Positions 2,596 through 21,724 of a DNA stretch of 21,898 nt are shown piece after piece. This DNA comes from a virus. Its lineage: Duplodnaviria; Heunggongvirae; Uroviricota; Caudoviricetes. The DNA lies in IMG/VR virus record IMGVR_UViG_2718218402_000002. The stretch is one strand, 5' to 3'. The notes under the pieces were generated by a model. That model had not been told where the DNA came from. It was given only the letters and a program-made list of their open reading frames with translations, and did no database searches. The stretch's first letter is position 1; each line of letters opens with the position of its first letter. Position numbers and translations under genes: made by a program.

Positions 2596-2779
2596 AACTC
2601 ACAAGGAAAATGATAGAAGGAAATAACATTAGTGATGTACGCATGGCGCCTCCCGCTAAGTTCTGCAATGATCAAACAGAACTCGCTACGTGCCCTTAAA
2701 ACTCGATCATTTAGCCCCTCCAAGGAGGATTCACCATGCGGTTGATTTTTTAATAAACAGTAAACAAAAAAGTCAAGGA

Positions 2780-2890
2780 TTATTCATTCTGTTTTTTCAT
2801 CATCGGCCACAGCAATACCACAATGCCGCAGACCAGAGCGCCATCAGTCAGTACCAACATTATCCTGCTGGTGAAATCCATCATCACCAT
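2780..2890 (-). CDS. Possible small single-TM peptide (36 aa)
   Basis: Not in the ORF track (short). MVMMDFTSRIMLVLTDGALVCGIVVLLWPMMKKQNE has a hydrophobic core and a KK tail. No convincing SD; speculative. Confidence 0.2.
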   Translation of the reverse strand: MVMMDFTSRIMLVLTDGALVCGIVVLLWPMMKKQNE

Positions 2891-3023
2891 CACTAAAAGC
2901 AGGATCACAACAGCAAGCAGACACAGTTTATAAAACAATGTTCAGAAAACGCATTCAGCATGCCTAAGGTTCTATTCCTACGAATAGCCAACTTGCAACT
3001 TAAAATATTATTTATGCAGCCAA

Positions 3024-3740
3024 TTAAATTCTGGTCCTTACAATATCAACCTGAAGATTCTTATCTTGTGCTGATTGATAAATGACAAACCTTTTACTAC
3101 CTGCATTGAAAGAAGTAGACAAAACCAGACAATTATCATAACGAGCAAGAACATAATACCAACCATCATTATAATTAATCATTTCATATTCTTTCTTAAA
3201 CTGCGGTTTGTAATATCCTGTCAGAAATGAAAAAAGCCAGAAATATGCCACAAAAGCAATCATCACAATCTCAAAAAAATGTTTTTTTATAAATGGCTTA
3301 TCATAGAAGCATGATACCGATAAAAATCGCCCATAAGATCTTATCGAAATTGTAACCGCCAGCGCAATCGCTGCTGACAGTAGCAAAAGAGGTACCTGAA
3401 TCTTCTGTCTCAATATAGAAAACTCAATAATTGCCGGCACAAACAATAATTCCACAGCAAAATAAAGGCGAAATACATTTAGCTCTTGCATAGAATGTTT
3501 TCTTTTCACTGCGAAAAAGAATACAACACCAATACCCCAACCGATAAGAAATATAGCAATGACGATAACTGCAAAAAATAAACTTCTGGCAACATCATCA
3601 ACACCTGCACCTACAATCCACCATGGGAAGCCGTAGTAAAAAGAAGTACCCCATCCATAGAAATAAGCACTCCCCCATCCAAGGCATCCCATGTAGGCAA
3701 TAAAAAGTGAAGAACTCCTGAGCAGTGCACCATCCTTCAT
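3024..3740 (-). CDS. Hypothetical polytopic membrane protein (moron between Q and holin)
   Basis: ORF 3024..3782 (252 aa). Preferred start is the ATG at 3740, preceded by GGGGTGG. Several hydrophobic segments N-terminally and a polar C-terminal domain. Markedly AT-rich versus flanking genes. No family recognised. Confidence 0.6.
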   Translation of the reverse strand: MKDGALLRSSSLFIAYMGCLGWGSAYFYGWGTSFYYGFPWWIVGAGVDDVARSLFFAVIVIAIFLIGWGIGVVFFFAVKRKHSMQELNVFRLYFAVELLFVPAIIEFSILRQKIQVPLLLLSAAIALAVTISIRSYGRFLSVSCFYDKPFIKKHFFEIVMIAFVAYFWLFSFLTGYYKPQFKKEYEMINYNDGWYYVLARYDNCLVLSTSFNAGSKRFVIYQSAQDKNLQVDIVRTRI

Positions 3741-3924
3741 AACCACCCCAATACAAGATGATAACATTGGCTTACAACTCATAACAAAAGCAATTCAATG
3801 CCGTCAAGAGGTTACAGGCTAAAAAAACTCTATTACATTGCAGTCAGCATGTTTACTACACAAATACAATTCAGAGCATAAAAACTACTCGGCGGCAGGT
3901 TATTGAGACTCATCAATGACATGT

Positions 3925-3980
3925 AAAAAACGCCCATTATTGGTGTCAAGTTTCCCCAAAGTTATTCAAAAAGTCAATAT
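3925..3980 (-). promoter_or_regulatory. Late promoter pR' / qut-like region
   Basis: The - strand reads TTGACTTTTTGAATAACTTTGGGGAAACTTGACACCAATAATGGG, closely resembling the lambda pR'/qut region as recalled, about 40-90 bp downstream of the Q stop. Confidence 0.55.
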
Positions 3981-4019
3981 TATGCCGTTAATATGTTGCC
4001 ATCCGTGGCAATCATGGCG

Positions 4020-4643
4020 CTAACGTGTGATCGCATTCAAAATGTTGTCTGCGATTGACTCTTCCTTGTGGCATTGCACAACCAGAGCGTCATACAGCGG
4101 CTTAACAGTGCGTGACCAGGTGGGTTGGGTAAGGTTTGGGATTAGCATCGTCACAGCGCGATATGCGGCGCTTGCTGGCATTCTTGAATAACCGACGCCT
4201 TTACATCTTCCGCACTCTTTCTCAGCAACTATCCCCCACTGCTCTGTTTTGGCTATATCAACCGCACGGCCTGTACCGTGGCAATCTCGGCATCTTGCGC
4301 CCGGCGTAGCGGCACTACGGCAATAATCCGCATAAGCGAATGTTGCGAGCACTTGCAGTACCTTTGCCTTAGTATTTCCTTCAAGCTTTGCCACGCCACG
4401 GTATTTCCCCGATACCTTGTGTGCAAATTGCATCAGATAGTTGATAGCCTTTTGTTTGTCGTTCTGGCTGAGTTCGTGCTTACCACAGAATACAGCCATT
4501 CCGAATCCGGCTTGTGATTGCGCCATCCCCATAGCAGCCATCACATCAGTACCGGAAAGAGAGTCAGAAGCCGTGGCCCGTGGTGAGTCGCTCATCATCG
4601 GGCTTTTTGGCGAATGAAATTTAGCTACGCTTTCGAGTCTCAT
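4020..4643 (-). CDS. Q: Late antiterminator Q
   Basis: 207 aa, essentially identical to lambda Q as recalled ([29 protein letters not shown]...NILNAITR). Confidence 0.95.
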
Positions 4644-6255: not shown

Positions 6256-6395
6256 ACGTCCTCCTTTTCCTGCGGTAGTGGTAACACCCCTGTTGGTGTT
6301 CTTTCACACCGGAGACACCATCGATTCCAGTAAGGTTGCCCGGGTCGAAAGCGATCGTCTTCCTTTCGCTCTCCACATCGATAACAGTGCTTCAT
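6222..6395 (-). CDS. Small zinc-ribbon protein (NinD-position)
   Basis: Track ORF 6222..6413. An ATG at 6395 overlaps the methyltransferase stop (ATGA). CYRCG...CLRC motif. Confidence 0.4.
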
Positions 6396-6982
6396 GCGAT
6401 CACCATTTTGCATGGTTTAATCGCCATGCCGGGAGCCAGTTCAAAATCGGAGTCGCACTGATTGCCCCACATATCCCACCCGGTCACTTTGTCGCGGCTA
6501 AATAACTCACAGCGCGGCACGTCGCCAAGCAACTTAGCTAACATGTCTCTTACGATCGGTGGTTTTGCACTGTGCTCCATTCTCGGTGCGGTAAAGTGCT
6601 GGCATATTGAAGCGTCCATTCTCTCAGGCAACCGCCCTCGAACAGCAAACAAGCAATCCTCGCTATTTGCCCGGGTCATATGCCCCATTCCGATCGCACT
6701 GTTGCCTTTGTGCTTATTGGTTTTGTGCCAGGTAAAGCCTTTCATAGTCATCAACCTGAATCCCCACGACTCAACTACCTTTAGCGCTTCGGCTGGCTGT
6801 GTCGGCACCCACCACATCGCTAACAAGCAAGATTCTGGATCCGCTAAATCCCATACTGGCAGTCGGCAAATGTCCTGAACATTCATAACATCGTATTTAT
6901 GTCCAGCACCGCGATTGCCATCGTTGGCTTTGTCGCGATATTGCCAAGGCGGATCTGCGTAAATAAGTCGGTATTTGTTCAT
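6392..6982 (-). CDS. DNA N6-adenine methyltransferase (MT-A70-like, DPPW motif)
   Basis: 196 aa starting [15 protein letters not shown], the catalytic motif of N6-adenine methyltransferases. Sits where lambda carries ninC. Confidence 0.8.
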
Positions 6983-10055: not shown

Positions 10056-10125
10056 CGTACTTTCAGTACGCATTATGATTGAACTGAAAGTTTTTGCAAG
10101 TGCTTTAGTATCGTACTCATGGTTC
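10056..10125. promoter_or_regulatory. OR region: three 13-bp palindromic operators with divergent pR and pRM
   Basis: GTACTTTCAGTAC (10057-10069), GAACTGAAAGTTT (10081-10093), GTACTCATGGTTC (10113-10125, over the cI ATG). Candidate pR on - strand: -35 TTGCAA (10094-10099), -10 CATAAT (revcomp of 10072-10077). Candidate pRM -10 TAGTAT (10106-10111). Confidence 0.55.
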
Positions 10126-10826
10126 AGAATGAAAAAGTGCGCAAAGAATTCGCCCAGCGGCTAGCGCAAGCCTGTAAAGAAGCTGGTCTTGATGAACATG
10201 GTAGGGGAATGGCCATAGCCCGTGCCCTTTCTCTTTCGTCCAAAGGCGTTAGCAAATGGTTTAATGCTGAGTCTTTACCACGCCAGGAAAAAATGAATGC
10301 GCTTGCGAAATTTCTAAACGTTGATGTTGTTTGGCTTCAGCACGGCACTTCGTTAAATGGAGCGAATGATGAAGATACTTTTTCAATTGTTGGCAAATTA
10401 AAAAAAGGGTTAGTGCGCGTGGTTGGTGAGGCAATTCTTGGTGTTGATGGTGCCATCGAGATGACCGAAGAGCGCGATGGGTGGCTCAAGATTTATAGCG
10501 ATGATCCAGATGCCTTTGGTCTTCGTGTAAAAGGAGACAGCATGTGGCCCAGAATTAAATCAGGAGAATATGTACTCATTGAGCCTAACACCAAAGTATT
10601 CCCAGGTGATGAAGTGTTTGTCAGAACCATTGAAGGGCACAACATGATCAAGGTTCTTGGCTATGACAGAGACGGAGAATACCAATTTACAAGCATCAAT
10701 CAAGACCACAGGCCAATAACGTTGCCTTATCATCAAGTAGCAAAGGTGGAGTATGTGGCTGGTATTTTGAAGCAATCTCGCCACCTAGATGACATCGAGG
10801 CAAGGGAATGGATTAAAAGTTCGTGA
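10119..10826 (+). CDS. cI: CI prophage repressor (HTH plus S24 LexA-like autopeptidase domain)
   Basis: 235 aa. C-terminal domain has the GDSM Ser motif and downstream Lys typical of RecA-stimulated autocleaving repressors. The ATG sits inside the third operator, suggesting a leaderless pRM transcript. Confidence 0.9.
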   Translation: MVQNEKVRKEFAQRLAQACKEAGLDEHGRGMAIARALSLSSKGVSKWFNAESLPRQEKMNALAKFLNVDVVWLQHGTSLNGANDEDTFSIVGKLKKGLVRVVGEAILGVDGAIEMTEERDGWLKIYSDDPDAFGLRVKGDSMWPRIKSGEYVLIEPNTKVFPGDEVFVRTIEGHNMIKVLGYDRDGEYQFTSINQDHRPITLPYHQVAKVEYVAGILKQSRHLDDIEAREWIKSS

Positions 10827-10923: not shown

Positions 10924-11466
10924 GTGGCTAAAAAAGGCGACTTTAAGCCTACCCAGAAAGAGGTTGACCAAGCTATTACTCGCTTGAAAAAAGTAACTTT
11001 TAGCGGAGTTTCGTGGACCGGAAGTGAGGGACGAACCCCAATCTGGTTTAAATTGGATCTCAAAGCTTTTGATGAAATTGGCAACCCAATCACAGGCATA
11101 AGATTTATGCTTCACTGGCGTTCTCCTATCGTTGAAGGGGTGGATATAGTGAAGCTTTCATTTGTGATGTTTCTTCATGACAGGCGCATTTACGCGCTTG
11201 ACCCGTACCCTGCGCATAACAAGTCACACCGTAATAAATCTATAGTGCACCATCCAGATTTTGTTGAGGTGGCTCGAGGTCCTCACTATCACATGTACTT
11301 CGAATCAGCTGGGGAAGAAATTGCACTCAAGCTTGAAACGAACATCAAGCCAGATGATTTTTTTGGCTACTGGAATTATTTTTGCGAGGCGCTTAATATC
11401 ATATATGAAGGCAGCCCACCTTTACCGAATCAAGATAAATCAGGTCAGCTATCATGGGAAATGTAA
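10924..11466 (+). CDS. Hypothetical protein A of the cI-downstream cassette (rexA-position)
   Basis: 180 aa ORF with GTG start and no obvious SD; the first in-frame ATG would give 119 aa. His-rich segment HNKSHRNKSIVHHPDF...PHYHMY. No family recognised. Lower GC than neighbours. Confidence 0.5.
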   Translation: MAKKGDFKPTQKEVDQAITRLKKVTFSGVSWTGSEGRTPIWFKLDLKAFDEIGNPITGIRFMLHWRSPIVEGVDIVKLSFVMFLHDRRIYALDPYPAHNKSHRNKSIVHHPDFVEVARGPHYHMYFESAGEEIALKLETNIKPDDFFGYWNYFCEALNIIYEGSPPLPNQDKSGQLSWEM

Positions 11467-12230
11467 CGTGTTCAACAGTCATATCTAAGCTCGGGTTTGA
11501 ATGCCACCCAATGAGCGACACGTTGCTGCGCGTTATTAGTCCCTTCACATACTACGATGATTGTGAGCAGATAAGCGTATTCGTTCAAGAGATGAGTGGT
11601 CAGTATAGGGTTACAGACTACTGCGATACATTGATGAATATTGAATCACGCGGCATCCACCTGACTAAAAAGAAAATTGATCTGATCAGGTCATCACTCG
11701 CTTCGCAAGGAATTTCATTAAATGACTCTGGAGAGATATCTGCGTGGGCAGATGAGTCGTCCGTTGGACAGGTAACTGCAAATGTTATTCGTGGTGGGAT
11801 TCTTGCATCCGCCCAAACTGCTGATTGGTATGCTGAGGTCAAAGACGATAAGTTCGAAAAATGTGTAATCAGTTACTTAAAATCAGCAGGGCTTGGGAAG
11901 CGACTAGCCTTAAAGGAAAAAGTGAAAGGTATTAGTGGGCATAACATTACTGTTCCGTTAACGCTAAGGAATGAGTCTCGACTAATACCACCAAAACGCG
12001 GGTTTACGGTAAGCCTTGCCAGCAGTAAAGGATGGAATACTGCCCACTCAACAGTTGGGAAGATTGTTGACTTAAGTCAGGTCGTTCCTGACATAAACAA
12101 TAGATTTGTAATAGTTGACAGCGATGGGTTAACACCTGAGCTACAGCAACTATCACTACTATTTAATGATACCGCACGAGTGTTGCCATTCCATACCAGA
12201 GACTCTTGGATTGACTCTCTGGTAGCCTAG
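11454..12230 (+). CDS. Hypothetical protein B of the cI-downstream cassette (rexB-position)
   Basis: 258 aa. The ATG at 11454 overlaps the stop of protein A by 13 nt (alternative ATG at 11511). Soluble-looking, no family recognised. Confidence 0.55.
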   Translation: MGNVTCSTVISKLGFECHPMSDTLLRVISPFTYYDDCEQISVFVQEMSGQYRVTDYCDTLMNIESRGIHLTKKKIDLIRSSLASQGISLNDSGEISAWADESSVGQVTANVIRGGILASAQTADWYAEVKDDKFEKCVISYLKSAGLGKRLALKEKVKGISGHNITVPLTLRNESRLIPPKRGFTVSLASSKGWNTAHSTVGKIVDLSQVVPDINNRFVIVDSDGLTPELQQLSLLFNDTARVLPFHTRDSWIDSLVA

Positions 12231-13017: not shown

Positions 13018-13104
13018 ATGGAAGAAGAATTTGAAGAGTTCGAAGAGCATCCGCAGGATGTGATGGAACAATACCAGGACTATCCGTATGACTACGACTA
13101 TTGA
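13018..13104 (+). CDS. Possible small acidic peptide (28 aa)
   Basis: MEEEFEEFEEHPQDVMEQYQDYPYDYDY, with GAGGTGAG upstream. Overlaps the ral start in another frame. Not in the ORF track. Confidence 0.25.
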   Translation: MEEEFEEFEEHPQDVMEQYQDYPYDYDY

Positions 13105-13288
13105 TAAAAATCAATGGTGTGGACAATTCAAGCGATGCAATGGATGCAAGCTGCAATCGGAATGCATGGTTAAGCCTGAAGAAATGTTTCCTGTAATGGA
13201 AGATGGGAAATATGTCGATAAATGGGCAATACGAACGACGGCAATGATTGCCAGAGAACTTGGTAAACAGAACAACAAGGCTGCCTGA
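13088..13288 (+). CDS. ral: Restriction alleviation protein Ral
   Basis: 66 aa, MTTTIDKNQWCGQFKRCNGCKLQSECM...; matches lambda Ral from memory in sequence, size and position just after N. Confidence 0.6.
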   Translation: MTTTIDKNQWCGQFKRCNGCKLQSECMVKPEEMFPVMEDGKYVDKWAIRTTAMIARELGKQNNKAA

Positions 13289-13324
13289 TGGTGGCCTTTA
13301 TTTTCTTATTTGAGAGGAATTAAT

Positions 13325-13948
13325 ATGTCATCAATCCGCTTAACTACGAGAATGAAAGAGGAAATCGCTCGTAACGCTTTAATTAAGTCTGGGGTTTTCA
13401 CTGAACTTGAAGAAGTAACAAAGTTAAAGAACCAGCTTGCACTTGACGCCAGAGTTATTGCGTTTGGCGGGAAAAAGAAAACCGAAGAAGTGGACCAGCT
13501 GGCATCAAAGTTAATGGCTGCAAGTGAGGAACTTCAAAAGCTTGGATGTTCATTTTACTCATGCGATGTCAGTTCAAGTTCGATTTATCTGACTGTATCT
13601 GGAAGAAGGGTTGGCTGGCATTCATACGGAAAAGACGGCAACGGTGAAGATATATTGCTCCCTACCCCCGACAAAGATAAATGCATGTTTGACGCAGAAC
13701 ACAAAATAACAAAAAGGTTTGATGAAATCTGCGCATTGCAACAAAAACTTGAAGCCAGGAAAAAGGATATCGAATCAAATGTATGGGCTGCTTTGAACTC
13801 AGTCACAACAGTTAAGCGACTTATTGAGGTCTGGCCTGAAAGCAAAGAGTTGCTACCAAAAGAAGCAGATAAAGCAAGTGCAGCACTTCCTGCTTTACGG
13901 GTAGAAGATTTGAATAAGATGATTGGACTTCCTTCCGAGGCCGCATAG
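13325..13948 (+). CDS. Hypothetical early-left protein (207 aa)
   Basis: Track ORF 13310..13948 (TTG); likely ATG at 13325. Predicted coiled-coil N-terminal half. No family recognised. Confidence 0.55.
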   Translation: MSSIRLTTRMKEEIARNALIKSGVFTELEEVTKLKNQLALDARVIAFGGKKKTEEVDQLASKLMAASEELQKLGCSFYSCDVSSSSIYLTVSGRRVGWHSYGKDGNGEDILLPTPDKDKCMFDAEHKITKRFDEICALQQKLEARKKDIESNVWAALNSVTTVKRLIEVWPESKELLPKEADKASAALPALRVEDLNKMIGLPSEAA

Positions 13949-14121: not shown

Positions 14122-14538
14122 ATGGAAATTACAGATATTCTGGTTAATCCAGATAATTACGACCAATTCAATATCTCTACTCAATCAGTTGATTTAGGTT
14201 GTGCAACTGTCAGCGCATGGCTACTTAATGGTAAACAGTTGGATAAATGCCTTGATGCACATATGACGGTTAACAGCTTCCTTGCAGAAAAAACACACTG
14301 GCAAGATGCTGGAGGGAAATATGCTGGATGGCTTGAAAGCATGGGATTTGAATATCAATCTGATGAAGGTTGGTGGAGCCTTATAGCTGTAACGCCTGAG
14401 ACAATAGAATGCTTCGTTAAATACTCAAACGACGATGACTATAAACACCAGGTAGATTCTGCGATAGAAAGATACAAAAGAAAATCGTTCAACCACGAAA
14501 TATCATCAGTTCTTGATTTCATAGAAGTCTTCAAATAA
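14122..14538 (+). CDS. Hypothetical protein (138 aa)
   Basis: Good RBS (GGAGG). Acidic, Trp-rich. Same length as lambda Gam but the sequence does not resemble Gam as I recall it. Confidence 0.6.
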   Translation: MEITDILVNPDNYDQFNISTQSVDLGCATVSAWLLNGKQLDKCLDAHMTVNSFLAEKTHWQDAGGKYAGWLESMGFEYQSDEGWWSLIAVTPETIECFVKYSNDDDYKHQVDSAIERYKRKSFNHEISSVLDFIEVFK

Positions 14539-14622
14539 GCCGCCTGAGCGCGGCTTTACCGCATACCAATAATGCTTCACCAGAGGCATTTTCGTTATGC
14601 AATCAAACAGAAGGAGCATCCT

Positions 14623-14793
14623 ATGCAACAGTTCGCTATTGCAGGGGCGGCATCGGTTCGCCCTTTCAACCCGATTTTATCGGTACAGCATTCACGAAAA
14701 AACATTTTAACCGGAGCAGACTTTAAACAACCAAGAATGAAAAGTTTGCTCGAAAAGCTTTGGGATATTTTGAAACAACAAGGCCGTCCATGA
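14623..14793 (+). CDS. cIII: CIII-like protein (FtsH inhibitor family)
   Basis: Track ORF 14572..14793; ATG at 14623 preceded by AAGGAG. MQQFAIAG...KSLLEKLWDILKQQGRP resembles lambda CIII (MQYAIAG...ESLLERITRKLRDGWKRLIDILNQPG). Confidence 0.6.
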   Translation: MQQFAIAGAASVRPFNPILSVQHSRKNILTGADFKQPRMKSLLEKLWDILKQQGRP

Positions 14794-14897
14794 GTTTTAC
14801 AGATAACTGGTCAGACGAAGAATTCATTCGTCAGATGAACAAAATGCTCAATCAGCACAAAGAACAGGAGAAAGATGATGATTCTGACTCTGAATGA
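14790..14897 (+). CDS. Possible small acidic ORF (35 aa) at the kil position
   Basis: The ATG overlaps the cIII stop (ATGA). MSFTDNWSDEEFIRQMNKMLNQHKEQEKDDDSDSE. Not in the track. Confidence 0.3.
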   Translation: MSFTDNWSDEEFIRQMNKMLNQHKEQEKDDDSDSE

Positions 14898-15186
14898 TAA
14901 GCGTGAAATATCGCAAATAATCGCAAGTTTTACTGATGAAGATTACGAGCGAATCAACAGTGAAGTTGATCGCCTCTGCAAACGTTGCGACCCAATAAGC
15001 GAAATGCTTCGCTCATATAAACCAGATGAACACACTAAGGACGCTATCGACTGGCTGGAAGATGATGACTGTAACTATCAGGAAAAAGCCGCTGAATGGT
15101 TCTGGGATGCAATAACCGAAAGAGTTAAGGCTGAATATGCCTTCGCAATATTCAAACGCAGACATATTTATGGAGAAGCTGCATGA
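14875..15186 (+). CDS. Hypothetical protein (103 aa) immediately upstream of recT
   Basis: RBS AGGAG. Its stop overlaps the recT ATG (ATGA). Occupies the gam-equivalent position; no family recognised. Confidence 0.55.
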   Translation: MMILTLNDKREISQIIASFTDEDYERINSEVDRLCKRCDPISEMLRSYKPDEHTKDAIDWLEDDDCNYQEKAAEWFWDAITERVKAEYAFAIFKRRHIYGEAA

Positions 15187-16094
15187 GCAATATCGTTGAA
15201 TTCGTTAAACAGCAAGAGCAGTTATTCTGCGGAGCATTGACTGAACAGACGGTGACATGGGCTAAGGAAAGCCAGTTTGCAATTCAGTATTTCCAGAAAA
15301 ACGATTACCTGGCTAAAACAGCACTGGCAAATCCAACCAGCGCACAGAACGCCATCATCAACGTTGCGGCGATCGGCATCACCTTAAACCCTGCAAGCAA
15401 ACTGGCTTATCTAGTTCCGCGCGATGGCATGGTTTGCCTTGATATCAGCTATATGGGATTGCTTCATATTGCAATGGAGTCTGGTGTTATCTCATGGGGT
15501 CAGGCAAAACTTGTTCATGCTAACGATACCTATGAGTCAAACGGGCTTGATAAAGCACCAACCCATAAATACAACGCCTTCGGTGATCGTGGTGATATCG
15601 TTGGCGTTTACTGCACAGTTAAGACGCCGGCAGGTGATTATCTAACGGAAGAGATGAGTCTGGCTGAAATTGAGGCTGTAAGGAAAACAAGCAAGGCGGC
15701 ATTCAGCGATAAAGGACCATGGGTAAATCACTGGAATGAGATGGCGCGAAAGACGGTCGTAAAGCGTGCAAGCAAGTATTGGCCTAAGGCATCACGTCTT
15801 GATAGTGCTATTCACGTACTAAACGAAGAAGAAGGTGTGTGGACTGAACCAGTTATGCCGCACAAATCAGAGGAAGATATCCGCGAAGATGAACGGAAAC
15901 GCCAGCAGGAAATAATGGATAAAGCACAACTTCTTTGCGATGAAATGGCTCAGGCAGAAAACATGGACGATTTGAAGCGATATTTTGCAGAAGCATATCG
16001 CCTGACATCTGGAATGAAATTGCAGCAGAACGTACAAGCCATTTACGCAGAATGCAAAGCGAAACTGGAGGTTGCCAGTGAGCAAACTATATGA
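15183..16094 (+). CDS. recT: RecT-family single-strand annealing protein
   Basis: 303 aa; ...AQNAIINVAAIGITLNPASKLAYLVPRDG... is characteristic of the RecT/Red-beta superfamily as recalled. Confidence 0.85.
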   Translation: MSNIVEFVKQQEQLFCGALTEQTVTWAKESQFAIQYFQKNDYLAKTALANPTSAQNAIINVAAIGITLNPASKLAYLVPRDGMVCLDISYMGLLHIAMESGVISWGQAKLVHANDTYESNGLDKAPTHKYNAFGDRGDIVGVYCTVKTPAGDYLTEEMSLAEIEAVRKTSKAAFSDKGPWVNHWNEMARKTVVKRASKYWPKASRLDSAIHVLNEEEGVWTEPVMPHKSEEDIREDERKRQQEIMDKAQLLCDEMAQAENMDDLKRYFAEAYRLTSGMKLQQNVQAIYAECKAKLEVASEQTI

Positions 16095-16560
16095 AATTGC
16101 CAATGAATACGCAAAATTGATGGATTCAGATTTAGAACCAGAGATGATTGCTGACACAATAGAAGGCATGGAAGGAGAATTTACCGATAAAATAGAGCAA
16201 CTTCTTTCCATTATTAAAAATGAATCTGGTTATGCCGAACGCCTCAAGGAAGAGGCAAAGTCACTGAATGAGCGAGCCGCAGTAATTCAAAATAAGATTG
16301 ACAGCATCAAATCATATATAGCGTCATCGCTTGAAATGGTTGGCAAGAAAAATATTCGAGCAGGTATTCACCAGGTAACAATCCGCAAACCGTCAGAAAC
16401 TGTAGAAATCATCGACTCAAGCGCCCTTCCTCCTGAATACGTTGAGTTTGAAACGACAATTAAAGCCGACAAACTGGCAATCAAACACCAACTAAAAGCA
16501 GGAATAAATATCCCCGGCGCTCAACTCAAAGTTGGGAAACCTTCACTTCTTATCAAATAA
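16078..16560 (+). CDS. Gp157-like protein
   Basis: Track ORF 16072..16560 (TTG); likely GTG at 16078 with GGAGG seven nt upstream. Family assignment from recalled resemblance to Siphovirus Gp157 proteins, which often neighbour recT/sak genes. Confidence 0.55.
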   Translation: MSKLYEIANEYAKLMDSDLEPEMIADTIEGMEGEFTDKIEQLLSIIKNESGYAERLKEEAKSLNERAAVIQNKIDSIKSYIASSLEMVGKKNIRAGIHQVTIRKPSETVEIIDSSALPPEYVEFETTIKADKLAIKHQLKAGINIPGAQLKVGKPSLLIK

Positions 16561-16571
16561 CGGTATCGCCT

Positions 16572-16886
16572 ATGAAAAAGACTCCATGGGAGAAATGGGA
16601 AGTCGATTTCTTGCGCGAAGTAGCGGCGACAATGCCAGTTGAAGTTATCGCTGAAAAACTGGAAAGGACTGAAAAAGCAGTAATGGCGAAAGCAACAAGG
16701 ATTGGCGCTGACATTGTTAGCCGACTTCGTGGAAGACGCTGGACAAGAGCCGAAGTATCACTTTTCGGTAAGTTCTCCGCAGAAGAAATAGCAATTGCAA
16801 CCTGCCGCTCAATTTATTCAGTAAGAGCTATGCGATACAAGCTAAAAAAACTCGATGAAGAAAGAGAAGGCATACGAATAAATTAA
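16572..16886 (+). CDS. Hypothetical protein (104 aa)
   Basis: ATG start, in the same operon. Internal duplication of a W...EV...L motif. No family recognised. Confidence 0.5.
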   Translation: MKKTPWEKWEVDFLREVAATMPVEVIAEKLERTEKAVMAKATRIGADIVSRLRGRRWTRAEVSLFGKFSAEEIAIATCRSIYSVRAMRYKLKKLDEEREGIRIN

Positions 16887-16902
16887 CATGGAGTAATTAA
16901 CA

Positions 16903-17184
16903 ATGAAGCTAAACATCGACCTAGGCAAATACGTTATTACCGGAACAAAACACGATCTGATTCTTAGTGAAATAGGAGTTATCAAAGAAGGTGATAATGC
17001 AGGGAAAGAAACATTAAGTCGTATCGGTTATTACAGCAAGTTTGAGCATCTGGTAAAAGAGTTATGCAACCGTGAAATCCTGTTATCTCAGGCGCAGACG
17101 CTACAGGATATTCAGCAGCATATCGAGACTTTAGGTGTATCACTTAGCATGGCTATTGACCAGTTCGTGGAGAGTAAATCATGA
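16903..17184 (+). CDS. Hypothetical protein (93 aa)
   Basis: ATG start; stop overlaps the next ORF's ATG. Confidence 0.5.
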
Positions 17185-17345
17185 GAGGACTTGCATACAA
17201 TCCCGGCATTCTTCCGGCAGAAATGATTATTCGCCAGCGCGTAAAGCCAATGCCATCGAGAGAGGAATTGCTTAAGAGAAATTCTTTTCCGTCAGTGAAT
17301 CAAAACAAATATCTGAATGCGATGTTGCGGAGTGGGAAAAAATGA
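17181..17345 (+). CDS. Possible small ORF (54 aa), coupled at both ends
   Basis: [36 protein letters not shown]...; ATGA overlap with the upstream gene at 17181 and with the downstream gene at 17342. Not in the track. Confidence 0.35.
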
Positions 17346-20337: not shown

Positions 20338-20454
20338 CCATGAAATAACACCGCCTCACACTCGATGAGGCCTGTTCATTGCTCAATGATATCCAGACCT
20401 ACCATCGCCGCATCAATGCGGCTTTTTCTTGCGTGTAATTGCGGAGACTTTGCG

Positions 20455-20673
20455 ATGTACTTGACACTTCAGGAGTGGAACGCACGCCAGCGACGCCCAA
20501 GAAGCCTTGAAACAGTTCGTCGATGGGTGCGCGAATGCAGGATATTCCCTCCTCCTGTTAAGGATGGAAGAGAGTATCTGTTCCACGAATCAGCGGTAAA
20601 GGTTGACTTAAATCGACCAGTAACAGGTAGCCTTTTGAAGAGGATCAGAAATGGGAAGAAGGCGAAGTCATGA
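20455..20673 (+). CDS. xis: Excisionase Xis
   Basis: 72 aa, MYLTLQEWNARQRRPRSLETVRRWVRECRIFPPPVKDGREYLF..., near-identical to lambda Xis as recalled. Overlaps the int start. Confidence 0.9.
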   Translation: MYLTLQEWNARQRRPRSLETVRRWVRECRIFPPPVKDGREYLFHESAVKVDLNRPVTGSLLKRIRNGKKAKS

Positions 20674-21724
20674 GCGCCGGGATTTACCCCCTAACCTTTA
20701 TATAAGAAACAATGGATATTACTGCTACAGGGACCCAAGGACGGGTAAAGAGTTTGGATTAGGCCGAGACAGGAGGATAGCAATCACTGAAGCAATACAG
20801 GCCAATATTGAGTTGCTATCCGGGAGCAGGCGTGAGTCACTGATAGACAGAATTAAAGGCGCTGACGCAATCACTCTTCATGCGTGGCTTGACCGATATG
20901 AAACAATCCTCAGCGAGAGGGGTATCAGGCCGAAAACTCTACTCGACTACGCCAGCAAAATCAGGGCAATCCGAAGAAAATTGCCGGACAAACCGCTCGC
21001 TGACATATCAACGAAAGAGGTGGCAGCAATGCTAAACACCTACGTAGCAGAAGGTAAAACGGCTTCCGCAAAATTAATCAGGTCAACCCTTGTTGACGTT
21101 TTTCGTGAGGCAATAGCCGAGGGGCATGTGGCTACGAATCCGGTAACAGCAACCCGCACAGCAAAGTCAGAAGTAAGGCGCTCAAGGCTGACAGCTAATG
21201 AGTATGTCGCGATTCACCATGCAGCCGAACCTCTCCCAATCTGGCTGAGGCTTGCGATGGATTTGGCCGTCGTTACAGGTCAGAGAGTCGGCGATTTGTG
21301 CAAAATGAAATGGTCAGACATAAACGACAACCATCTTCACATTGAACAGGGTAAAACAGGGGCTAAGCTCGCCATTCCGCTGACGCTAACGATTGACGCG
21401 CTCAATATCTCATTGGCTGATATACTACAGAAATGCAGGGAGGCCAGCGGCAGTGACACTATAATTGCATCAACGCATCACGAACCACTTTCCCCGAAAA
21501 CAGTATCGAAGTATTTTACAAAGGCGAGAAATGCATCTGGACTCTCATTTGATGGAGACCCGCCAACATTCCATGAACTGCGTAGCCTGTCGGCGAGACT
21601 ATACCGCAATCAGATTGGCGATAAGTTTGCTCAACGTCTTCTCGGACATAAATCAGATTCAATGGCGGCGCGGTATAGGGACAGCCGAGGGAGAGAATGG
21701 GACAAAATTGAAATCAACAAATGA
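20651..21724 (+). CDS. int: Tyrosine integrase Int (lambda family)
   Basis: 357 aa. The first ~55 aa are identical to lambda Int as recalled; the core-binding region diverges; the C-terminus (HELRSLSARLY...LLGHKSDSMAARYRD) is conserved. Confidence 0.95.
   Translation: MGRRRSHERRDLPPNLYIRNNGYYCYRDPRTGKEFGLGRDRRIAITEAIQANIELLSGSRRESLIDRIKGADAITLHAWLDRYETILSERGIRPKTLLDYASKIRAIRRKLPDKPLADISTKEVAAMLNTYVAEGKTASAKLIRSTLVDVFREAIAEGHVATNPVTATRTAKSEVRRSRLTANEYVAIHHAAEPLPIWLRLAMDLAVVTGQRVGDLCKMKWSDINDNHLHIEQGKTGAKLAIPLTLTIDALNISLADILQKCREASGSDTIIASTHHEPLSPKTVSKYFTKARNASGLSFDGDPPTFHELRSLSARLYRNQIGDKFAQRLLGHKSDSMAARYRDSRGREWDKIEINK

Follow-up and report, generated by a model that had tools for sequence, protein, structure and literature searches.

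The genes considered here lie in a stretch of 21,898 nucleotides (record IMGVR_UViG_2718218402_000002, Caudoviricetes), the whole of which is referred to as the window and the source of which is a lambdoid Escherichia coli prophage in an orientation reversed relative to the lambda map. The pL operon of this prophage contains a recombination (Rec) module of four tightly packed genes, encoding a lambda Gam-like protein of 102 residues, a RecT-family annealase, a Gp157 protein resembling Mu Gam and an Abc1-like protein of 104 residues (Table 1). A first-pass annotation had described the central part of this module as a RecT with no recognisable exonuclease partner, preceded by an acidic, translationally coupled protein of 103 residues and followed by a Gp157-like protein, and the coordinates of all three open reading frames (ORFs) stand as it had them. 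RecT is full length, matching PF03837 over residues 31-217 with 111.9 bits (cut-off 24) and phrog_148 over residues 3-302, and it is 99-100% identical to the RecT proteins of the plaque-forming phages HK140, mEpX1 and Gally; on these matches it is a predicted single-strand annealing protein. Its start lies in a GGAG-N7-ATGA junction in which the upstream stop codon overlaps the start codon, which bears out the proposed translational coupling.

Neither neighbour of recT had been regarded as an exonuclease, and this was upheld by Pfam and PHROGs profile searches of the plus-strand ORFs from N to int, in none of which was a PD-(D/E)XK, YqaJ, RecE or other nuclease domain found. An annealase with an adjacent YqaJ or lambda Exo, RecE/DUF3799 or other exonuclease, the arrangement by which a SynExo pair is recognised, was likewise not found in the pL operon, and the only recombination-related genes on the minus strand are NinB (Orf) and NinG (Rap). 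As judged from these profiles the lack of an exonuclease is real inside this window, and related modules carry a YqaJ or DUF3799 nuclease in the equivalent position. It is not itself a discovery, the module being of the nuclease-free 'HK140 type' that has already been documented. In its passages on HK140, a 2025 survey of 325 lambdoid phages states that the RecT of this phage ('SAP type 4') acts 'with no phage-encoded nuclease', records the phage as being without a single-stranded DNA-binding protein and gives 'MuGam', which corresponds to Gp157, as its anti-RecBCD protein; elsewhere it reports that a nuclease gene is absent from 84 of 246 Enterobacteriales Rec modules (PMC12315714). The interval 14500-17200 of the window is 97-98% identical to HK140, mEpX1, Gally, Kapi1, 611R6 and others, and the module occurs at a coverage of at least 80% in 221 of 5426 complete E. 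coli genomes. Compared with HK140, mEpX1, Gally and Kapi1 (SAP-4 and MuGam, no nuclease) the DNA is essentially identical, with the same gene order and nothing material different. The earlier picture of a RecT without an exonuclease was thus correct but less unusual than had been implied, HK140 being a named example in those passages (PMC12315714), and the Gp157-like label was also correct but passed over the standing of that protein as a Mu Gam-type end-protection and anti-RecBCD protein. In the records of the HK140-type phages, and in the parts of the survey that treat them, the gene that precedes recT carries the label 'hypothetical' and is left out of the count of Rec or anti-RecBCD genes (PMC12315714), and it is this gene that is considered next.

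The gene can be read from either of two ATG codons, of which the second, at 14878, is the likelier start because relatives begin M-x-L-T; a GGAG lies at 14866-14869. The acidity ascribed to the product was confirmed (net charge -9, isoelectric point 4.65), and the mean net charge of its family is -8.9, figures that compare with -10 for GamS and -7 to -8 for GamL, P22 Abc2 being basic. The protein matched no Pfam family and falls in phrog_3486, a PHROG without an assigned function, and BLASTP against P22 Abc2 and Arf returned nothing significant. A word-indexed search recovered only 27 clusters of relatives and an exhaustive profile search over 1.8 billion representatives gave 54 matches at E <= 0.001, the family amounting to about 54 clusters at 50% identity from Enterobacterales phages and prophages, nearly all with members of about 100 residues. 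Nearly all members terminate in E-(A/V)-A, which in DNA is a GAGG with an ATGA overlap, and coupling to the downstream gene is therefore conserved family-wide. Gene contexts were surveyed by tblastn of phages and through the Gp157 loci described below. In phages with divergent members the family member is the first gene of the Rec module and may stand before RecT-YqaJ (the YqaJ exonuclease modules of ENT47670 and Midgardsormr38), RecE-RecT (phiEt88, in which the RecE-like protein is of the DUF3799 type), RecE-p189 (SEN22) or RecT-Gp157; it is therefore not bound to one annealase. Its position is that of lambda gam, after cIII/kil and directly upstream of an annealase or nuclease. The SEN22 order is cIII, a family member 96% identical to that of the window, a RecE-like gene, a gene for 189 residues and the same 104-residue gene as in the window, so that in this phage (locus L004, 3945-4514) a DUF3799 RecE-like nuclease and a 189-residue protein replace RecT-Gp157 between the same flanking genes. 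The 189-residue protein belongs to phrog_11517, has no Pfam match and is presumably an unrecognised annealase or partner. In phage Edno5, which a list in the survey gives as being without an anti-RecBCD function (PMC12315714), no family member was found by tblastn with the window protein or the family consensus, and a lone weak Foldseek match had a template-modelling (TM) score of 0.53.

Lambda Gam inhibits RecBCD by binding to it as a dimeric mimic of DNA, its N-terminal helix entering the RecB channel (PMC5218532). BLASTP of the 102-residue protein against lambda Gam gave an E value of 0.004 with 'TKDAIDWLEDDDCNYQEKAAE' aligned, the match falling on the motif DDDxx(F/Y)QE. Alignment by hhalign of a 35-member family profile with 20 Gam sequences scored 22.9 (E 1.1e-3, 28 co-linear columns), as against a mean of 11.3 (standard deviation 2.2, maximum 19.1) for 240 column-shuffled Gam profiles and 11.4 and 11.8 for reversed profiles, and the score was 24.8 (E 4.9e-4) after divergent Gam sequences had been added. 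The Gp157 loci surveyed below include, in Yokenella (L018), a divergent protein of the lambda Gam type that has 56% identity to lambda Gam itself, and the family hidden Markov model (HMM) matched it with 22.1 bits over 75 co-linear positions, compared with a maximum of 11.0 for 2000 shuffles and 1.8 for the reversed sequence. When the same HMM was applied to the 451 ORFs of the Gp157 loci, four lambda Gam proteins came directly below the five true members, with scores of 22.1, 13.1, 12.8 and 11.0 and the next ORF at 9.8, a ranking that is descriptive and not a probability because the four Gam proteins are mutually related. On these comparisons it is quite likely that the 102-residue protein is homologous to lambda Gam, and its family is probably a previously unlabelled, divergent lambda Gam relative that is likely to be a new member of the Gam family. 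A further likeness, between the N-terminal 'MxLTxxDxxEI' of the family and lambda GamS and phi80 GamL ('MNAYLTYDRIEE'), was dropped because the comparison of the family with GamL fell within the shuffle range, and only the C-terminal link to lambda Gam has been kept.

A survey of 28 Gp157 loci, taking one genome per species, included 17 enterobacterial loci with an intact or recognisable recT, and in all 17 the order is a gene of about 100 residues followed by RecT and Gp157. The first slot is filled by lambda Gam in four loci (L013, L018, L020 and L029), by phi80-type GamL in five (L014, L021, L025, L027 and L030) and by the 102-residue family in five (L015, L017, L019, L024 and L026); L028 has an unassigned 107-residue gene, and in L016 the locus is truncated ahead of recT. 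Across the loci, therefore, one slot is held in alternation by lambda Gam, a structurally characterised RecBCD inhibitor, by phi80 GamL, which is annotated and cited as a RecBCD/SbcCD inhibitor, and by the 102-residue family. This alternation is the strongest functional argument that the 102-residue protein may be a RecBCD inhibitor and, together with the distant similarity to lambda Gam, it favours the earlier suggestion that the upstream ORF, lying in the gam slot, could be a nuclease inhibitor; we infer that inhibition of RecBCD by this protein is plausible. The anti-RecBCD types named in the relevant part of the survey are only Gam, GamL, Abc2 and MuGam, MuGam being the only one credited to HK140, and the 102-residue family goes unmentioned where the survey discusses unrecognised Rec genes (PMC12315714). 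The 'hypothetical' phrog_3486 proteins of about 100 residues can now be labelled probable Gam-type host-nuclease inhibitors, a label that would alter the scoring of anti-RecBCD functions in Rec modules, and the family adds candidates for recombineering toolkits and for work on RecBCD inhibitors in antibiotic potentiation.

Interrupted and more distant versions of the module were also encountered. In Pseudenterobacter timonensis (L022, outside the 17) an IS3-family insertion at 2738-3942 (HTH_Tnp_1 and rve) replaces or disrupts recT and leaves the downstream gp157 intact. In Candidatus Erwinia dacicola (L015) a homing-type HNH_3 endonuclease gene (3537-4004, 9.6e-23) lies exactly between recT and gp157, a similar HNH gene is annotated in the module of phage Louie, and in its remarks on such cases the survey advises caution about mobile HNH genes within Rec modules (PMC12315714). 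The enterobacterial RecT-Gp157 module was also found, with about 70% protein identity, on three contigs of 1.9-5 kb labelled as an Actinomycetes metagenome-assembled genome, Micromonospora and Streptomyces (L016, L019 and L026), for which assembly contamination is a more likely explanation than genuine actinobacterial prophages. In Proteus (L033-L035 and L040, 2010-3977) and E. whittamii (L036, 1791-4004) a distant Gp157 (31-35% identity) overlaps preceding genes of 655-737 residues, which have no Pfam match and might be the nuclease-less 'RecE-2' proteins named in a part of the survey (PMC12315714), or another type of partner.

The gene downstream of recT matches PF05565 with 129.1 bits (cut-off 28.6) over all 162 profile positions. 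Its homologs are uniformly 160 residues long and a GGAGG at 16067-16071 lies 6 nucleotides ahead of a GTG at 16078, which is therefore the probable start; from there the gene overlaps the 3' end of recT by 17 nucleotides, in agreement with the overlap reported earlier. It occupies the position in which the related modules of phi80, ENT47670 and Midgardsormr38 have an exonuclease, with the same overlap of recT. The PHROG that it matches, phrog_253, is that of 'Mu Gam-like end protection', and in Firmicutes phages Mu gam-like and sipho_gp157 genes have been noted in corresponding positions beside erf and sak4 (PMC8093625). Wide Gp157 and Mu Gam profiles, aligned by hhalign, gave a weak score of 23.2 (E 0.0074). 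The 61 co-linear columns of this alignment lie in the beta domain and share a (V/I)-R-x-P-S-x-S-(V/I) motif; the highest score among 160 shuffles was 20.6, and the reversed profile scored 14.4. The predicted model has a 68-residue helix and a small C-terminal beta domain, and no meaningful match came from searching the PDB with a Gp157 profile. Gp157 is probably Mu Gam-like and a putative protein for the binding and protection of double-stranded DNA ends.

The C-terminal domain of lambda Beta and of RecT is the part that touches the partner exonuclease, and it is in this domain that the RecT of the window departs from its relatives. Over the core (residues 1-220) it shares 49-60% identity with the RecT proteins of phi80, ENT47670 and Midgardsormr38, all of which have a YqaJ exonuclease next to them, but residues 221-303 show only 14% identity to these three, which share another C-terminal domain. 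With the RecT of HK639, which has Gp157 as its neighbour, identity is 48% in the C-terminal domain, 75% in the core and 68% overall, and all of the Gp157-adjacent RecT proteins in the 17-locus survey have the window type of C-terminal domain (53-84% identity). Where Gp157 takes the place of the exonuclease the C-terminal domain is exchanged as well, which suggests a pairing of RecT with Gp157, and we infer that the C-terminal domain may contact Gp157; in one of its passages the survey suggests a 'shuffling of partner interaction domains' for Rec modules (PMC12315714). The joint swap of domain and partner provides a testable hypothesis for the annealases of many nuclease-free phage modules.

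When these observations are taken together, the more probable reading of the locus is a nuclease-free, HK140-type Rec module with a Gam-like inhibitor, RecT and an end-binding Gp157. The acidic 102-residue protein would act like lambda Gam, blocking RecBCD by DNA mimicry, and Gp157, as an end binder of the Mu Gam or Ku kind, would cap double-strand ends as a second protective layer. RecT would then anneal single-stranded DNA not made by the phage, derived from gaps at replication forks or from host resection such as that by RecQ/RecJ, and its C-terminal domain would be specialised for Gp157, an end binder rather than an exonuclease bringing RecT to DNA ends. A stronger form of this proposal, put forward only tentatively, is that Gp157 is the true partner of RecT, with a Ku/Mu Gam-like end dimer docking the swapped C-terminal domain and loading the annealase, so that the module would be a nuclease-free two-component recombinase behind a third, hitherto unrecognised sequence type of lambda Gam-like RecBCD inhibitor.

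A number of results weigh against the presence of a Gam-like inhibitor and a RecT-Gp157 partnership. PF06064, the Pfam model for Gam, matched none of the 35 family members even at E <= 10, and a Foldseek search of BFVD with the model of the 102-residue protein gave no significant matches and did not retrieve lambda Gam. The hhalign probability is just 20-32% and the confident stretch is 28 columns; similarity is confined to the C-terminal half, and the N-terminal helix, which in lambda Gam plugs RecB, is not demonstrably conserved and is split into two helices in the predicted model, an AlphaFold2 model built on only five sequences. The family compared with phi80 GamL scored 9.9 in hhalign, 120 of 200 shuffles scoring the same or higher, whereas between lambda Gam and GamL there is a clear relationship in the N-terminal part (E 5.8e-7). 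The covariation of the RecT C-terminal domain with its neighbour is essentially one evolutionary swap and not many independent ones. Finally, the part of the survey that deals with anti-RecBCD genes describes two such functions in one module as rare and names only HK639 (PMC12315714).

An important consideration is therefore whether the 102-residue protein is instead an accessory or regulator of recombination, whether as an annealase helper of the Arf or Abc1 kind or as a modifier of another module protein, its likeness to Gam being merely that of a small helical fold. The failure of the Pfam Gam HMM and of Foldseek against BFVD to find Gam, and the restriction of the alignment to the C-terminal half, fit this explanation, as do the presence in the module of Gp157 as a putative anti-RecBCD protein and the precedent of P22, in which the small accessory gene arf lies directly upstream of the annealase. 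Against these must be set the pairing of the family with RecT or with a RecE-like nuclease, by which it is not annealase-bound, and the alternation of its slot with two known RecBCD inhibitors; moreover it shows no resemblance to Arf, Abc1 or Abc2, it is an acidic protein of the size of Gam, and its sequence signal to Gam exceeds all of the controls. An accessory role is accordingly considered rather unlikely, though it is the most serious of the alternatives.

The remaining alternatives concern the exonuclease itself. Gp157 might replace it, either as an unrecognised nuclease or as an adaptor recruiting a host 5'-3' exonuclease to ends, and it does stand in the exact YqaJ slot of phi80, ENT47670 and Midgardsormr38, with the same overlap of recT and with a RecT C-terminal domain that has been swapped along with it. 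However, neither Pfam nor PHROGs reveals a nuclease domain or motif in its sequence, its model is not of the PD-(D/E)XK or DnaQ fold, and both profile similarity and annotation indicate the Mu Gam end-binding family, which makes such a replacement improbable. Less probable still is that the module is a decaying remnant from which the exonuclease has been lost, in which RecT survives by chance or serves for annealing of the oligo type at forks and the small genes are unrelated morons. In its favour, no exonuclease is present, there are disrupted versions in L022 (IS3), L015 and Louie (HNH), and a passage of the survey calls small modules 'somewhat suspect' (PMC12315714). Yet several plaque-forming phages and the 221 E. 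coli genomes keep the four-gene order intact with an identity of about 98%, and Citrobacter, Enterobacter, Yokenella, Siccibacter and Lonsdalea keep it with protein identities of 57-80%; in addition, translational coupling links the genes, RecT is full length and the gam slot is always occupied.

Comparison with better-known systems places the nuclease-free reading in context. With lambda gam-bet-exo the window shares the pL position after cIII, the order of inhibitor, annealase and partner and an acidic, helical first protein of about 100 residues, but it has RecT in place of Beta and the Gp157 end binder in place of Exo, and its Gam-like protein has diverged beyond the reach of the Pfam model. 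The kil-GamL-RecT-MuGam (Gp157) module of HK639 is like that of the window in having a small acidic protein, a RecT whose C-terminal domain is of the window type and a Gp157 of 160 residues, but its first gene is a phi80-type GamL with no detectable sequence similarity to the 102-residue protein. In phi80, ENT47670 and Midgardsormr38 the RecT core is homologous, and in the last two the slot is held by the 102-residue family, but a nuclease of the YqaJ/lambda Exo type stands in the place of Gp157, and the C-terminal domain of RecT is unrelated to that of the window. The classical nuclease-free Rec module acting on RecBCD is arf-erf-abc1-abc2 of P22, in which Abc1 shares a PHROG with the 104-residue protein of the window; there, however, the annealase is Erf, the basic Abc2 hijacks RecBCD rather than blocking it, and homologs of Abc2 and Arf were not found by BLASTP in the window module. 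Phage Mu has, in gp9-Gam, an end-binding protein beside a small helix-turn-helix (HTH) protein of phrog_323, as in the window, but with the gene order reversed and no annealase, and Mu Gam and Gp157 share neither a PHROG nor a Pfam family and show just a weak similarity.

The last gene of the module encodes a 104-residue protein whose PHROG, phrog_323, also takes in P22 Abc1 (1.3e-23), which aids P22 recombination, and Mu gp9 (5.2e-29). BLASTP against P22 Abc1 was negative, the gene is annotated as Abc1-like in Gally, and in L024 a true Abc1 homolog (51% identity) fills the same slot; the likeness of the window protein to Abc1 is thus one of PHROG co-membership and position only. A pairing of a Gam-like end-binding protein with a small HTH protein of phrog_323 recurs as Mu gp9 with Gam (L010, 1983-2826), as Gp157 with the 104-residue protein (window, 16078-16886) and as Gp157 with the P22 Abc1 homolog (L024, 4001-4795), which suggests that Abc1-type proteins may work with end-binding proteins.

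Table 1. Plus-strand features of the window from cI to int, with the profile matches or remarks that identify them.
Feature	Position	Strand	Evidence or remarks
cI	10119-10826	+	
Two overlapping genes in the rexA/rexB position, between cI and N	10924-11466, 11454-12230	+	
N	ends 13009	+	
ral	13088-13288	+	
Nmad5 gene	13310-13948	+	PF18757, 1.3e-69
phrog_8967 gene	between Nmad5 gene and cIII	+	
cIII	14623-14793	+	phrog_550 'CIII anti-termination' 2.3e-22, residues 18-73 of ORF 14572-14793
35-residue ORF	14790-14897	+	start ATGA-coupled to cIII stop; 3' end overlaps start of Gam-like gene
Gam-like gene, putative RecBCD inhibitor	14878-15186 (14875 from first ATG)	+	102/103 residues, acidic, all-helical
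recT, single-strand annealing protein	15183-16094	+	PF03837 3.7e-32; phrog_148 2.8e-92
RecT C-terminal domain, residues 221-303	15843-16091	+	differs with partner type
Gp157-family gene, 160 residues	GTG 16078-16560 (ORF 16072-16560)	+	PF05565 2e-37; phrog_253 7.6e-54
Abc1-like gene, 104 residues	16572-16886	+	basic, HTH-like; phrog_323 4.5e-20; phrog_11492
Run of Ea-type genes	after Rec module, before xis	+	
xis	20365-20673	+	
int	20651-21724	+	

The upstream edge of the Rec module is formed by cIII, as in the lambda order cIII-kil-gam-bet-exo, and the gene is annotated in HK140 in a version of 56 residues. The short ORF that follows it is annotated in Kapi1 as a hypothetical gene in its own right, between kil and the 102-residue gene, and its 'WSDEEFIRQM' has a weak link to 'FSDEEFIALI' of P22 Arf (E = 0.043). 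Further upstream, in the interval of the pL operon between ral and cIII, there is a full-length Nmad5 ('nucleotide modification associated domain 5') gene, and Kapi1 has one too. The two genes in the rexA/rexB position match, weakly and in order, both components of the PADLOC candidate defence system PDC-M24 (A 1.5e-3, B 6.3e-7), their other matches being to DUF6978 (weak), DUF1828, phrog_2017 and phrog_1960, and they may be a prophage exclusion or defence pair. No Chi sites are present in the window, an uninformative result with 0.56 expected. The minus strand carries cro, cII, O, P, the nin region (with NinB and NinG/Rap) and Q. In the nin region a DNA methyltransferase gene of the MT-A70 family (6392-6982, minus strand) adjoins NinB, with a NinI-like phosphatase, NinG/Rap and NinF nearby. 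There is an island at 3001-4000 with a low guanine-plus-cytosine (GC) content (0.36, compared with about 0.48 elsewhere), in which an ORF of 252 residues (3024-3782, minus strand) is without a Pfam or PADLOC match. This ORF lies directly downstream of Q (4020-4643), which is the slot for lambdoid morons such as stx.

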